From NCBI RefSeq assembly GCF_030028105.1, contig NC_092370.1, forward strand, positions 119,934,221 through 119,998,220: DNA of 64,000 bases, read 5' to 3'. This document shows positions 22,201-40,834 of the stretch, one piece after another. Position 1 is the first letter of the stretch; each line of letters starts with the position of its first letter. Origin of the DNA: Mobula birostris (Eukaryota). The position numbers and the translations under genes are program-made. The notes below the pieces were generated by a model. That model ran no database searches. It was given only the letters and a program-made list of their open reading frames with translations, and was not told the origin of the DNA.

Positions 22201-22352
22201 TCCTCCCTGTCACACTGTCTCCAAGCTTTCTCTATTTGTGAGTCAACTGCCCCTTCCTTAGTCTCTTCAGTTCGGTTCTCACCCCCCTGCAATTCTACTT
22301 TAAGCTCTCCCCAATACCCTTAGCAAACCTCCCTGCCAGGATATTGGTCCCC
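19300..22352 (-). mobile_element. CR1 LINE with near-complete but frameshifted ORF2 and the end of ORF1
   Basis: ORF pieces: CVYFNAKSI, AVTETW, GDSDH (endonuclease); SGVPQGSVLGP, KFADD, LVRPHLEYC (RT); 3' tail ttttctatgtttctat. Confidence 0.93.
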
Positions 22353-30489: not shown

Positions 30490-33400
30490 TGTTGTTACAG
30501 AGGAAGGGCTCCTTAGAGACCATGTTAAGGAAATGGAGCCGTAGCTTGATGATCTTTGGCAATGAGGAGATGATAAGAGCTACAGGAAGGTAGTCACCCC
30601 TAATTTGCAGGGGGCAGGTACATGAGTGACTGTCAGAAGAGGGAGAGAGAATAAGCAGTGCTGTGGCCCTTCCCCTCAATAATAAGTATATCACTTTGGA
30701 TACTGTTGGGGGGGGAATGACCTACCAGGGAGAAGCCACAGCAAACAGGTCTGTGGCACTGAATGCGGCCCTGTGGAAGAGAAGGGAGAAGAAGAAGTGT
30801 GCAGTAGTGATAGGGGATTCCATAGTTAGAGAGCGTAGAGGAGATTCTGTGGATGTCAACAGGACACCTGGATGGTATTTTGCTTCCCAGGTACCAGGGT
30901 CAGGGACGTCTCGCAGCATTCTGAAGGAGGTGGGTGAGCAGCCGGAAGTCGTGGTGCATATTGGTACCAACAACATCGGTGGAGAATGGAAGGAGGTCCT
31001 GAAGAGAGAATAGAGGGAGTTAGGTAGAATGCTGAAAAGCAGGACCTCCAGGGTAGTAATCTCTGGATTGCTGCCTGTATGTCACGCCAGTGAGGGTAAG
31101 AGTAGGATGATTTGCCAAATGAATGTGCGGCTGAGGAACTGGTGCAGAGGGCAGGATTTCAGATTTCTGGATCACTGGGATTTCTTCTGGGGAAGATAGG
31201 ACCTGTACAAAAGGATGGATTATACCTGAACCTGAGGGGAACCAATATCCTTGCAGACAAGTTTGTGAGAGCTGTTGAGGAGGGTTTTAAACTAATATGA
31301 CAGGGCGATGGGAACCAGACTAACAGGGCAGAGAATGGAGCAATTGGTACACAAGTAGATGTAGTGTGTAGTGAGGCTGTGAGGAAGGACAGACAGATTA
31401 TAGGCAAAACTGCAGTCAGTGGGATGAGTTGTAATGTGGGGGAAAAATTGAAAAGGGTGATGAATATAGGACTGAAGGTGTTATATTTGAATGCATGCAG
31501 TATATGGAATAAGGTAGATGATATTGTAGTGCAATTAAGAGATTGACGGATATGACATTGTGACACTGAGTCATGGCTGAAAGAAGATCTGTGTTGGGAG
31601 CTTACCATCTGAGAATACACTTTGTATTGAAAGGACAGGCAGGTAGGCAGAGGGGGTGGGGAGGTTCTATTGGTAAAAAATGAAATCAAATCCTGTGAAA
31701 GAAGTAAGATAGGACCGGAAGATGCAGAATCTTTGTGGGTAAAGTTAAGAAATGGCAGTGGTAAAAAGACTGTGATGGGAGTTATATACAGGCCTTCAAA
31801 TAGTACACAGGATGTGGGATACAAATTATAACAGCAGATAGAAAATGCATGTAAAAAGAGCAATGTTATGATAGTAATAGGGGTTTTCAATGCGCAGGTA
31901 AATTAGGAAAATCAGGTTGGTGCTGGATCCCAAGAGATGGAATTTGTAGAATGCCTACGAGATGGCTTTTTAGAGCAGCCTGTGGTTGAGTCCACTAGGT
32001 GAAAGGCAATTCTAGATTGGGTGTTTTGTAATGAACCAAATTTGATTAGGGAGCTTGAGGTAAATGAATGCTGAGGAGGCAGTGATCATAATTTGATGGA
32101 TTACACGCTGCAATTTGAGAGGGAGAAGCTAAAGTCAGTATCAATATTACAGTGAAGTAAAGGGAGGCATGAGAGAGGAACTGGCCAAAGGTGTTTGGAA
32201 GGGGACAGCAGGACAACAATGGTTGGACTTTCCAGGGGCAATTCGTAATGCATAGGACAGATATATCTCAATGGTGAAGATGTATTCTAAAGGGAGGTTG
32301 AGGTAATTATGGCTGACAAGGGAAGTCAAAGACAGCAAAAAAGCAAGAGTACAATATAGTGGGAAGTTCGAGGATTAGGAAGTTTTTTAAACCACAGAAG
32401 GCAACTGAAAAGTGAGGAGAGAAAAGATGAAATAGGAAGGGAAGCTAGCCAATAATATAAAAGAGAACACCAAAAGATTTTTTTTTTCAAGTATTTAAAG
32501 AGTAAAAGAGAGGCGGGAGTGGATATCAGACCACTGGAAAATGATACTAGAGAGGGAGTCATTGGGGACAAACAAATGGTGGAGGAACTTAATAAGTATT
32601 TTGCGTCAGTCTTCACTATGGATGACATGAGCAGTGTGCCAGAAATTTAAGAGTGTCAGGAGGCAGAAGTAAGTGTTGTCGCTATTAATAAGAGAAGGTG
32701 CTTGGGAAGATGAGAGGTCTGAAGGTAGGTACTGTAAATCACCTGGACCAGATGGAGTACACCCCAGGGTTCTGAAAGAGGTAACTGAAGAGATTGTGGA
32801 GACATTAGTAATGATCTTTCAAGAATCACTAGATTCTGGAATCGTTCTAGAGGACTGGAAAATTGCAAATGTCACTCCACTACGTAAGACGAGAAAGAGG
32901 CAGAGAATGGAAATTATCACCCAGTTAGCCTGACTTCAGTGGTTGGAAAGATGTTAGGGGGCATTGTTAAGGATGAGGTTTTGGGGTTCTTGGAGGCACG
33001 TGATAAAGTAGGCCAAAGTCAGCATGCTTTCTTTGAGGGGATATCTTGCCTGACAAATCTGTTGCGATTCTTTGAGGAAATAACAGGCAGAGTAAACAAA
33101 GGATGTTATTTACATGAATTTTTAGAAGGCCTTTGACAAAGTGCCACACATTAAGCTGCTTAACAAGATAAGAGCCCATGGTATTGCAGAAAAGACATGA
33201 ACGTGGACGGAAGATTGGCTGACCTGCAGTGGTTGGCTCCCAGTGACTAGTGTTGTTCTGCAGGGATCAGTGTTGGGACCACGTCTCTTCACATTTTATA
33301 TCAATGATTTGGATGATGGAATTGCTTGCATTGTGGCAAAGCTTGCAGGTGATACGAAGACAGGTGGAGGAGCAAGTAGTGTTCTGGAAGTGGGAAGTTG

Positions 33401-36742: not shown

Positions 36743-39700
36743 AACATAGAACATAGAATAGTACAGCACAGTACAGGCCCTTCGGCCCACAATGTTGTGC
36801 CGACACTCAAACCCTGCCTCCCATATAAGCCCCCACCTTAGATTCCTCCATATACCTGTCTAGTAGTCTCTTAAACTTCACTAGTGTATCTGCCTCCACC
36901 ACTGACTCAGGCAATGCATTCCACGCACCAACCACTCTCTGAGTAAAAAACCTTCCTCTAATATCCCCCTTGAACTTCCCACCCCTTACCTTAAAGCCAT
37001 GTCCTCTTGTATTGAGCAGTGGTGCCCTGGGGAAGAGGCGCTGGTTATCCACTCTATCTATTCCTCTTATTATCTTGTACACCTCTATCATGTCTCCTCT
37101 CATCCTCCTTCTCTCCAAAGAGTAAAGCCCTAGCTCCCTTAATCTCTGATCATAATGCATACTTTCTAAACCAGGCAGCATCCTGGTAAATCTCCTTTGT
37201 ACCTTTTCCAATGCTTCCACATCCTTCCTATAGTGAGGTGACCAGAACTGGACACAGTACTCCAGGTGTGGCCTAACCAGAGTTTTATAGAGCTGCATCA
37301 TTACATCGCGACTCTTAAACTCTATCCCTCGACTTATGAAAGCTAACACCTCATAAGCTTTCTTAACTACCCTATCCACCTGTGAGGCAACTTTCAGGGA
37401 TCTGTGAACATGTACCCTGAGATCCCTCTGCTCCTCCACACTACCAAGTATCTTGCCATTTACTTTGTACTCTGCCTTGGAGTTTGTCCTTCCAAAGTGT
37501 ACCACCTCACACTTCTCCGGGTTGAACTCCATCTGCCACTTCTCAGCCCACTTCTGCATCCCATCAATGTCTCTCTGCAATCTTTGACAATCCTCTACAC
37601 TATCTACAACACCACCAACCTTTGTGTCATCTGCAAACTTGCCAACCCACCCTTCTACCCCTACATCCAGGTCGTTAATAAAAATCACGAAAAGTAGAGG
37701 TCCCAGAACAGATCCTTGTGGGACACCACTAGTCACAATCTTCCAATCTGAATGTACTCCCTCCACCACCACCCTCTGCCTTCTGCAGGCAAGCCAATTC
37801 TGAATCCACCTGGCCAAACTTCCCTGGATCCCATGCCTTCTAACTTTCTGAATAAGCCTACCGTGTGGAACCTTGTCAAATGCCTTACTAAAATCCATAT
37901 AGATCATATCCACTGCACTACCCTCATCTATATGCCTGGTCACCTCCTCAAAGAACTCTATCAGGCTTGGTAGACACGATCTGCCCTTCACAAAGCCATG
38001 CTGACTGTCCCTGATCAGACCATAATTCTCTAAATGCCTATAGATCCTATCTCTAAGAATCTTTTCCAACAGCTTTCCCACCACAGACATAAGGCTCACT
38101 GGTCTATAATTACCTGGACTATCCCTACTACCTTTTTTGAACAAGGGAACAACATTCGCCTCCCTCCAATCCTCCGGTACCATTCCCGTGGACAACGAGG
38201 ACATAAAGATCCTAGCCAGAGGCTCAGCAATCTCTTCTCTCGCCTCGTGGAGCAGCCTGGGGAATATTCCGTCAGGCCCCGGGGACTTATCTGTCCTAAT
38301 GTATTTTAACAACTCCAACATCTGCTCTCCCTTAATATCAACATGCTCCAGAACATCAACCTCACTCATATTGTCCTCACCATCATCAAGTTCCCTCTCA
38401 TTGGTGAATACCGAAGAGAAGTATTCATTGAGGATCTCGCTCACTTCCACAGCCTCCAGGCACATCTTCCCACCTTTATCTCTAATCGGTCCAACCTTCA
38501 CTCCTGTCATCCTTTTTTTCTTCATATAATTGAAGAATGCCTTGGGGTGTTCCTTTACCCTACTCGCCAAGACCTTCTCATGCCCCCTTCTTGCTCTTCT
38601 CAGCCCCTTCTTAAGCTCCTTTCTTGCTTCCCTATATTCCTCAATAGAACCATCTGATCCTTGCTTCCTAAACCTCATGTATGCTGCCTTCTTCCACCTG
38701 ACTAGATTTTCCACCTCACTTGTCACCCATGGTTCCTTCACCCTACCATTCTTTATCTTCCTCACCGGGACAAATTTATCCCTTACATCCCGCAAGAGAT
38801 CTCTAAACATCAACCACATGTCCATAGTACATTTCCCTGCAAAAACATCATCCCAATTCACACCCGCAAGTTCTAGCCTTATAGCCTCATAATTTGCCTT
38901 TCCCCAATTAAGAATTTTGCTGTCCTCTTTGATTCTATCCTCTTCCATGATAATTATAAAGGCCAGGGAGCAGTGGTTACTGTCCCCCAGATGCTCATCC
39001 ACTGAGAGATCTGTGACCTGACCCGGTTCATTACCTAGTACTAGATCTCGTATGGCATTCCCTCTGGTTGGCCTGTCCACATACTGTGACAGGAATCCAT
39101 CCTGGACACTCTTAACAAATTCTGCCCCATCTAAACCCTTGGAACTAATCAGGTGCCAATCAATATTAGGGAAGTTAAAGTCACCCATGATAACAACCCT
39201 GTTATTTTTGCACCTTTCCAAAATCTGCCTCCCAATCTGCTCCTCTGTATCTCTGCTGCTACCAGGGGGCCTATAGAATACCCCCAGTAGAGTAACTGCT
39301 CCCTTCCTGTTCCTGACTTCCACCCATATTGACTCAAAAGAGGATCCTGCTACATTACCCACCCTTTCTGTAGCTGTAATAGTATCCCTGACCAGTAATG
39401 CCACCCCCCCTCCCCTTTTTCTGCCCTCTCTATCCCTTTTAAAGCACTGAAATCCAGGAATATTGAGAATCCATTCCTGCCCTGGTGCCAGCCAAGTCTC
39501 TGTAATGGCCACTACATCATAATTCCATGTATGTATCCAAGCTCTCAGTTCATCATCTTTGTTCCTGATGCTTCTTGCATTGAGGTACACACATTTCAGT
39601 CCTTCTACCTTACTGTCTTTACACCCTTTATTCTGCTTCTCTTTCCTCAAAGCCTCTCTGTATGTTAGATCTGGCTTTACTCCATGCACTTCTTTCACTG

Positions 39701-39960
39701 CTCTATCGCTCTTGGTCCCATCCCCCTCACAAATTAGTTTAAACCCTCCCGAACCATGCTAGCAAACCTACCTGCAAGGATATTGCTCCCCCTCGAGTTC
39801 AGGTGCAACCCATCCAATCTGTACAGGTCCCACCTTCCCCCGAAGAGATCCCAATGATTTAAAAATCTAAAACCCTGCTCCCTGCACCAACTCCTCAGCC
39901 ACGCATTCAACTGCCATCTCCTCCAATGCTTACCATTTCTGTCACGTAGCACTGGCAGCA
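36743..39960 (-). mobile_element. Young 5'-truncated CR1 LINE: ORF1 C-terminus plus uninterrupted ORF2
   Basis: 3' tail (TTCTATG)n at 36743; ORF1 esterase-like end LNAWLRSWC..DGLHLN..REGLN*. Confidence 0.95.
36807..39758 (-). CDS. CR1 ORF2: APE-type endonuclease plus reverse transcriptase (frame open 39758-36807; ORF track starts at GTG 39698)
   Basis: YLNARSI, AITETW, MGDFN, GDSNH; YRPVSL, DFSKAFDKVPH, SGVPQGSVLGP, KFADD; no stops or frameshifts over more than 960 codons. Confidence 0.93.
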   Translation of the reverse strand, partial: HGSGGFKLICEGDGTKSDRAVKEVHGVKPDLTYREALRKEKQNKGCKDSKVEGLKCVYLNARSIRNKDDELRAWIHTWNYDVVAITETWLAPGQEWILNIPGFQCFKRDREGRKRGGGVALLVRDTITATERVGNVAGSSFESIWVEVRNRKGAVTLLGVFYRPPGSSRDTEEQIGRQILERCKNNRVVIMGDFNFPNIDWHLISSKGLDGAEFVKSVQDGFLSQYVDRPTRGNAIRDLVLGNEPGQVTDLSVDEHLGDSNHCSLAFIIIMEEDRIKEDSKILNWGKANYEAIRLELAGVNWDDVFAGKCTMDMWLMFRDLLRDVRDKFVPVRKIKNGRVKEPWVTSEVENLVRWKKAAYMRFRKQGSDGSIEEYREARKELKKGLRRARRGHEKVLASRVKEHPKAFFNYMKKKRMTGVKVGPIRDKGGKMCLEAVEVSEILNEYFSSVFTNERELDDGEDNMSEVDVLEHVDIKGEQMLELLKYIRTDKSPGPDGIFPRLLHEAREEIAEPLARIFMSSLSTGMVPEDWREANVVPLFKKGSRDSPGNYRPVSLMSVVGKLLEKILRDRIYRHLENYGLIRDSQHGFVKGRSCLPSLIEFFEEVTRHIDEGSAVDMIYMDFSKAFDKVPHGRLIQKVRRHGIQGSLARWIQNWLACRRQRVVVEGVHSDWKIVTSGVPQGSVLGPLLFVIFINDLDVGVEGWVGKFADDTKVGGVVDSVEDCQRLQRDIDGMQKWAEKWQMEFNPEKCEVVHFGRTNSKAEYKVNGKILGSVEEQRDLRVHVHRSLKVASQVDRVVKKAYEVLAFISRGIEFKSRDVMMQLYKTLVRPHLEYCVQFWSPHYRKDVEALEKVQRRFTRMLPGLESMHYDQRLRELGLYSLERRRMRGDMIEVYKIIRGIDRVDNQRLFPRAPLLNTRGHGFKVRGGKFKGDIRGRFFTQRVVGAWNALPESVVEADTLVKFKRLLDRYMEESKVGAYMGGRV

Positions 39961-39979
39961 AGCAAAATTGAATCACAGT

Positions 39980-40073
39980 CCTGCCGAAGGATTTTGGCCC
40001 GAAACGTCGACTGTACTTTTTTCCATAGATGCTGCCTAGCCTGCTGAGTTCCTCCAGCATTTTGTGGGTGTTG
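39980..40073 (+). mobile_element. 94-bp Penelope pLTR fragment starting at a hammerhead-like motif
   Basis: Flanked by direct repeat CACAGT (39974-39979, 40074-40079); same family as 9220-9325. Confidence 0.75.
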
Positions 40074-40834
40074 CACAGTGGATTTAATTTGGCTTTTTTG
40101 GCACTGATCAACAGAAAAAGACTCTTTTGTGTCAAAGTGAAAACAGATCTCTACAAAGTGATCTACAAACATTTGTAAATTAATTACAAGTATAAAACAC
40201 AAAATAATTGATTGCATAGATATTCACCCCCTTCAAATCAGTATTTAGTAGAAGCACCTTTGGCAGCAATTACAGCCTTGTGTGGATAGGTCCCTATCAG
40301 CTTTGCACATCTGGACACTACAACTTTTCCCCATTCTTCTTCACAAAACTGTTCAAGGTCTGTCAGATTGCATGGCGATCGTGAGTGAACAGCCCTTTTC
40401 GGGTCAGGTCTAGCCACAATTTCTCAATTATGGACTCTGACTTGGCCACTGCAGGACATTAATTTTGTTGTTTTTAAGTCATTCGTTTGTAGCTTTGACT
40501 TCATGCTAGGTGTTATTGTCTTGCTGGAAAACAAATCTTCTCCCAAGTTGCAGTTCTCCAGCAGACTGTACTAGGGTGTATCTGCACTTGTGCCACCCCC
40601 CGCCCCTGGCCCTCCCTCTGCCACCTGTCCTGCACCCCTCCTGCAGTGCGCCACCCTTGCCATTCCTAACATACTTTGCTCCTGCCAGATTTATAAACTT
40701 GCTTTCTGCTCCACATTGACAAATTCAATACCGTCCAAAAGTCTTAAGTACTGAATATATATATATATAACATACACACTCACATACACATACAGAGCTG
40801 TATATATGTACCCAAGACTGTTGCACAGTACTGT

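Follow-up and report, generated by a model that had tools for sequence, protein, structure and literature searches.

The window, that is, the whole 64-kb stretch of Mobula birostris DNA analysed here, carries on its minus strand a copy of a LINE that we assign to the CR1 clade with an esterase ORF1, judging from the relatives of its ORF1 and from its 3′ tail. The 3′ end of ORF1 (39737..39961), identified by PF13472, tblastn and blastn, encodes part of an SGNH/GDSL esterase with the tail ...REGLN. The PF13472 (Lipase_GDSL_2) match has an E-value of 1.4e-6 and scores under the curated cut-off because ORF1 is present as a fragment only; in tblastn the fragment corresponded to residues 239-313 of the ORF1 of a natural copy, L024. 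The blastn boundary places the 5′ truncation of the copy at about 39961. The window copy is thus unable to make ORF1 or a fusion protein itself, and the interpretation given below concerns the CR1 family. It is a dead copy carrying an intact ORF2.

A direct check of the sequence showed that positions 39751-39734 of the minus strand read CGG GAG GGT TTA AAC TAA. These codons contain the slippery heptamer U_UUA_AAC (TTTAAAC; 39737..39743) in the phase of ORF1, which is supported by the sequence, by genomic copies and by lineage representatives, and the ORF1 stop codon TAA (39734..39736) abuts it directly. A second heptamer, G_GGU_UUA (GGGTTTA; 39740..39746), overlaps the first. At +11 to +15 past the heptamer lies a run of G (39722..39726), a candidate stimulator by virtue of its conservation. 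The linker from the slip site to the endonuclease (39600..39733) is open in the -1 frame and has no Met, while the other two frames contain 6 and 5 stops. The ORF2 frame (-1; 36807..39743) is intact and encodes an APE endonuclease (PF03372, E-value 3.8e-16) and a reverse transcriptase (PF00078, E-value 3.5e-34), with the matches to PF03372, PF14529 and PF00078 all above cut-off; measured from stop to stop, this frame extends over 39758-36807, or 983 codons. Its first in-frame ATG (39186..39188) is codon 191 and lies within the endonuclease, where the Exo_endo_phos match spans residues 60-262, and the ATG at 39721 belongs to the ORF1 frame. A short 3′ UTR (36743..36806) ends in short repeats, which we take to be a CR1-type tail. 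The initial annotation of this DNA had placed both heptamers, the stop codon, the open -1 frame and the two ATGs in the same way, and all of them agree with the sequence.

The ORF1 of the sister copy L024 matches ray, shark and turtle proteins, the nearest named relatives being those of rays and sharks, and the ORF1s of turtles, lizards, birds and frogs are related by sequence. CR1 is abundant in this genome. On its plus strand the window contains another CR1 family, which is older and has an ORF1 that is 48% identical; its junction (31286..31295) likewise reads TTTAAAC-TAA, with one extra T in this copy. That of a third, decayed CR1 copy on the minus strand (22295..22304) retains the heptamer with two substitutions, followed by TAG and a G-run. 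At least eight more CR1-like ORF2 fragments of differing ages are scattered on both strands between 400 and 52800. On the minus strand, a short repeat-like stretch (39975-40070), presumably akin to an abundant elasmobranch short interspersed repeat, adjoins the 5′ truncation point, and the sequence at 40230-40560, upstream of the CR1 fragment, presumably resembles the 3′ end of a Tc1/mariner transposon. One protein (P0021) and one locus (L151) present CR1 ORF1 under bacterial names (Pseudomonas, Providencia), probably as a result of host contamination in those records.

A single TTTAAAC followed by a stop codon is not rare in 64 kb (4 seen versus about 0.9 expected from base composition), and the evidence is therefore its conservation in phase. 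A 401-nt query returned 1765 candidates in the genome, of which 40 were scored and 30 fetched. TTTAAAC-TAA was found in 27 of these 30 close copies, as was GGGGG at +11 to +15, and one copy had an in-frame ATG ahead of the endonuclease. The close copies are 97-98% identical, so they show the state of the source element and not selection. Divergent junctions were found by esterase homology, with the last columns kept out of the profile, and the search was independent of the heptamer. From 75 metagenome loci (host DNA) the esterase profile recovered 30, five of which stop short of the site; the other 25 had the exact heptamer in 19 cases, a near miss in four (L093, L105, L123 and L147) and none in two (L144 and L146), which belong to a different esterase lineage. 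In 750 kb at arbitrary positions, the heptamer was exact in five of seven junction rows, with a stop after four of them, and absent from two. The closest named relatives of one non-vertebrate-type lineage, L110, were annelid proteins (86%). Scans of viral contigs and plasmids gave no relatives, and that of genome contigs gave one short locus without the junction. In the old family L046-L075, the heptamer matched at 0.92 and its flanks at 0.89, the similar decay being expected for dead copies.

Each lineage is represented by one hand-picked natural copy; copies that were truncated, frameshifted or from a duplicate family were excluded, as were the two L144-type loci. Over the last 60 codons of ORF1, the 23 representatives have a median nucleotide identity of 46% (range 35-86%). 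Nevertheless, the terminal Leu was TTA in 22/22 and the terminal Asn AAC in 22/22, with the preceding T in 22/23, as against an invariant esterase Leu that was TTA in 1/23 and nearby conserved esterase residues that use their commonest codon in 41-68%. A stop (TAA, TAG or TGA) follows the heptamer in 23/23, the representatives being anchored on the stop. The background chance of this codon choice is about 0.9% (0.009) per lineage, a value that was not multiplied into a p-value because the lineages are related and their counts are not independent events. When three further ray subfamilies were included, TTTAAAC plus stop was kept in 23 of the 26 representatives, which comprise ray, amniote-type and annelid-type lineages, and the codon ahead of Leu-Asn encoded nine different amino acids. 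The site is thus conserved beyond the amino acid constraint in most of the CR1 lineages sampled, a check that the initial annotation had suggested, and the free variation at synonymous positions that it had named as a counter-indication was not seen. On the other hand, the overlapping G_GGU_UUA, which it had also noted as being in the correct phase, occurs in only 3/26 representatives and is hence incidental.

Could protein constraint alone produce such a pattern, with the C-terminal Leu-Asn of ORF1p and an N-terminal F-K-L of ORF2p fixing the overlapping nucleotides? LN does end most complete tails in three protein searches (34/36, 46/46 and 52/64). However, the -1 frame is shut within five codons upstream of the site in 16/26 representatives, which leaves no room there for an upstream ORF2 start and puts F-K-L out of its reach, and the esterase ORF1s of other lineages end differently (36/80; L144 and L146). 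We consider this explanation highly improbable. The residue before LN is also informative: K, E, Q, M and W have codons that cannot end in U and so cannot supply the first U of the heptamer, and they occupied this position in 1/43 distinct tails versus 13/43 one position earlier (p = 7e-4). With redundant tails, the distant representatives gave 1/44 versus 12/44. We conclude that the site is real, conserved at the nucleotide level and not due to chance.

Among 123 new distant ORF1 representatives, 80 had scorable tails: LN terminates 44 of these and GN another 10, including 7 with QGN, and other distant tails have KN at a similar position. The GN-ending proteins include P0344, P0345, P0352, P0353, P0356, P0362, P0364 and P0396, and the KN proteins include P0374, P0369, P0379, P0380 and P0404. 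As predicted from the protein tails alone, the heptamers G_GGA_AAC and A_AAA_AAC could encode QGN and KN, respectively; no QGN- or KN-type family was present among the top matches in the genome of the window.

In 17/26 representatives, the -1 frame contained the endonuclease motif, and 14 of these have a stop-free linker of 34-81 codons; the nine without the motif in this frame are truncated or indel-bearing copies. Two of the nine, L093 and L113, both single copies with the endonuclease in the +1 frame, have probably decayed. L093 had been considered as a subfamily that swapped the heptamer for an AUG, which was rejected given its single copy, its +1 endonuclease and a sibling, L113, that keeps the heptamer. 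Between the site and the first Met, 3 stops were counted in 424 codons over 14 linkers; at the rate of the other two frames, with 96 stops per 1062 codons, about 38 would be expected. The count of 3 is unconditioned, and that of 0 stops in 309 codons is conditioned on stop-free linkers. At the level of copies, the endonuclease was in the -1 phase in 22/22 copies of family 1 and in 19/21 young-family copies where it was found, and the old family L212-L241 showed no clear phase, with three copies in -1, two in +1, one in 0 and 11 in none. A Met was present in 9/14 clean linkers at scattered positions (codons 3, 4, 21, 22, 28, 38 and 45), and five, including that of the window family, were free of Met, which makes the use of an AUG impossible there. 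The proposal of an AUG-less ORF2 therefore holds for the window family, where an AUG upstream of the endonuclease was confined to the single close copy mentioned above, and for these five linkers, but not for the nine that carry a Met.

These data bear on termination-reinitiation, the main rival of frameshifting, in which the ribosome would resume translation in the frame of ORF2, either from a nearby AUG or independently of AUG in an L1-like manner, with the heptamer as part of the signal. The available portions of PMC2881922, PMC3708506 and PMC5009743 describe this mechanism for L1 and SART1. A SART1-type UAAUG stop-start, absent from the window family (TAATTT), is indeed present in one other ray subfamily, the young L242-L273 (tail EDLN), which combines the heptamer with a TAATG overlap in the ORF2 frame and would lend itself to a natural comparison of frameshifting with reinitiation, and three bird-type copies have an ATG 2 nt past the ORF1 stop. 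Yet reinitiation does not predict an in-phase X_XXY_YYZ site; the heptamer is fixed, whereas the Met positions are scattered or absent, and the linker is open also upstream of distant Mets. The Leu codon at the start of the endonuclease varies (CTG, CTA, CTT, CTC, TTG, or Tyr instead), which leaves no fixed near-cognate start, and no conserved upstream UGGGA (TURBS-like) motif was found, as it is missing in most amniote-type and in 2/6 non-vertebrate-type representatives. Reinitiation thus appears unlikely as the general mechanism, and it may operate alongside frameshifting in some subfamilies whose stop has an AUG close by.

Two further kinds of junction were seen. In L144 (position 1997) and L146 (position 743), ORF1 ends with CAT GAC TGA without a heptamer and an ATG overlaps the last codons, a possible reinitiation-type junction. 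Secondly, when one subfamily is compared with the UAAUG subfamily, their ORF1 ends share 63% identity but their linkers and endonucleases 88-92%; in the former, 54 extra nt (18 codons) follow its own heptamer and G-run, the -1 register is kept and UAAUG is absent. It is apparently an ORF1-swap chimera between two young CR1 subfamilies, and we count it in favor of frameshifting. When L253 (position 1692) was compared with L256 (minus strand, junction at 1201), the joint was located in the linker, at a second G-rich motif and in frame, and the ORF1 end of the L253 family was 84% identical to that of a third family, L182.

A DNA or RNA signal apart from decoding, for instance an internal promoter of TATA type that drives a separate ORF2 mRNA, or a protein-binding site, would let ORF2 start downstream. 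In its favor, TTTAAA is similar to a TATA variant, and the G-run shows conservation at the nucleotide level. Such a signal would, however, leave the fixed phase to both ORFs and the open linker unexplained, and 29/30 window-family copies offer no in-frame AUG before the endonuclease; we regard it as very unlikely. A join made in the RNA, whether through splicing, through editing or by a polymerase slipping at TTTAAA, is about as improbable as protein constraint alone. An annotated natural in-frame fusion, P0029 (...REG-FKL...), could be cited in its favor, but the runs span only three bases and the sequence shows no splice-type signal, and P0029 and P0199, both annotated in-frame ORF1-endonuclease fusions, are most simply explained by an indel at the junction. 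In a few genomic copies, the ORF1 frame is open well past its usual length (423-705 codons). Contigs from eight runs cover the junction; contigs cannot show expression.

The reading that best accounts for the junction, with a probability of roughly 0.8, is that -1 programmed ribosomal frameshifting (-1 PRF) yields an ORF1-endonuclease-reverse transcriptase fusion in this CR1 family. As is typical of -1 PRF sites, an X_XXY_YYZ heptamer lies in the zero-frame phase, the -1 ORF is open from the site onwards and conservation goes beyond the amino acids. The available text of PMC5009743 lists U_UUA_AAC, together with G_GGA_AAC and A_AAA_AAC, among the -1 sites that shift most readily. Most ribosomes would terminate at the ORF1 stop and release ORF1p, and a minority would slip, with tRNA-Leu and tRNA-Asn moving from UUA AAC to UUU AAA, and continue in the -1 frame; the predicted junction peptide is ...G-L-N-L-I-C-E-G-D-G.... 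In a less secure step, the pause would come from the stop codon next in line together with a factor on the unstructured G-run, and not from a pseudoknot. The gag-pol-like ORF1-EN-RT frameshift put forward in the initial annotation is in this respect supported by the codon choice, the open -1 frame and the fixed site.

A bare heptamer usually shifts only weakly, which counts against frameshifting. Downstream of the site, G was present at +11 to +15 after the heptamer in 26, 25, 24, 22 and 23 of the 26 representatives, respectively. At +11, the G falls on the third position of codons that specify eight different amino acids and, in one case, a stop (background G 39%), and GGG at +12 to +14 was found in 21/26 versus 29% of Gly codons. 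No conserved local fold was detected (z below -2 in 1/23 representatives; z = -0.78 for the window copy), no long-range pairing partner beat shuffled sequences in 11 representatives, and no stem-1 candidate was shared when folding was done with ViennaRNA, which models no pseudoknots. In coherence with the initial annotation, which had noticed a G-rich segment and no obvious pseudoknot downstream, the segment proved to be conserved and no conserved stem-loop or long-range partner emerged. The pseudoknot or stem-loop 5-9 nt downstream that defines canonical -1 PRF was thus not found. The G-run instead corresponds to the conserved unstructured motif at about 10-11 nt that characterizes the protein-stimulated arterivirus type. 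A G-quadruplex was rejected as a candidate, as it needs four G tracts, which by inspection the window family and the annelid-type copies do not have. The stop and the G-run likely stimulate the shift, and by analogy we infer a protein bound to the G-run.

A stop directly after the slip site is known also from some retroviruses. The arrangement resembles retroviral gag-pol/pro-pol and coronavirus (IBV) frameshifting, in which, as far as the available part of PMC5009743 describes it, U_UUA_AAC is in phase, the polymerase ORF is in -1 and the structural ORF1 product is in excess; CR1 has the same heptamer. Unlike these systems, CR1 is a non-LTR element, lacks a protease that could cut the fusion and has a fixed G-run, and no pseudoknot or stem-loop was found for it. 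[quoted passage not shown] The G-run of CR1 likewise begins at +11 but is G-rich and not C-rich, so the likeness is an analogy only and the binding factor hypothetical. L1 and SART1 share with CR1 a bicistronic LINE mRNA, and their ORF2 depends on ORF1 translation, as stated in the accessible text of PMC2881922; they yield a separate ORF2p, whereas a fusion is predicted for CR1 and most of its lineages have no stop-proximal AUG. Another close counterpart is CR1 subgroup 7 with a type IV ORF1 (zinc finger/leucine zipper plus esterase), which also has an esterase ORF1 and an ORF2 with APE and RT. The available portion of PMC4120745, where this type is described, reports esterase ORF1s in vertebrate subgroups only and does not contain the word "frameshift", whereas the same junction was seen here in an annelid-related lineage. 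A non-LTR gag frameshift in the HeT-A element of Drosophila is mentioned in the part of PMC5009743 at hand; unlike in CR1, this shift lies within gag and the element has no RT. The CR1 junction is, in summary, a probable gag-pol-like frameshift site for which the downstream structure of the canonical type was not found.

Full-text literature searches found no report of ribosomal frameshifting in CR1; their scope did not extend to the first descriptions of CR1 from turtle and chicken (Kajikawa 1997; Haas 1997, 2001), Kojima 2005, BfCR1, Kapitonov and Jurka 2003, Alisch 2006 and the Repbase/Dfam notes. It is not proposed in the available portions of PMC11835228, PMC5009743, PMC2734521, PMC3708506, PMC11203168, PMC2881922, PMC4120745, PMC3905857, PMC8665684, PMC5633606, PMC5006619 and PMC3894237. 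CR1 frameshifting is thus probably new in print.

The available text of PMC3708506 and PMC2881922 calls the translation of ORF2 from the bicistronic mRNA of LINEs unclear or unconventional, and the worked examples there are those of reinitiation. In birds, CR1 is the dominant repeat, and the esterase of its ORF1p is membrane-binding, as given in the accessible parts of PMC11835228 and PMC3905857, respectively. If frameshifting operates in CR1, ORF2p would carry ORF1p, including the membrane-binding esterase, at its N-terminus, the ratio of ORF1 to ORF2 products would be fixed, and annotations of ORF2 without a start codon would be explained. The cassette is short and would be directly testable in a reporter. 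More tentatively, and in its full extent rather doubtful, esterase-type CR1s from annelids to birds might all make a Gag-Pol-like fusion through a structure-free signal consisting of the heptamer, the abutting stop and the G-run at a 10-nt spacer, with a host G-run-binding protein or ORF1p itself acting on the G-run and distant lineages having switched to G_GGA_AAC or A_AAA_AAC. In that case, a structure-free G-run would represent a new type of stimulator, and CR1 would provide a natural protein-stimulated frameshift outside RNA viruses, one that could be regulated in trans.
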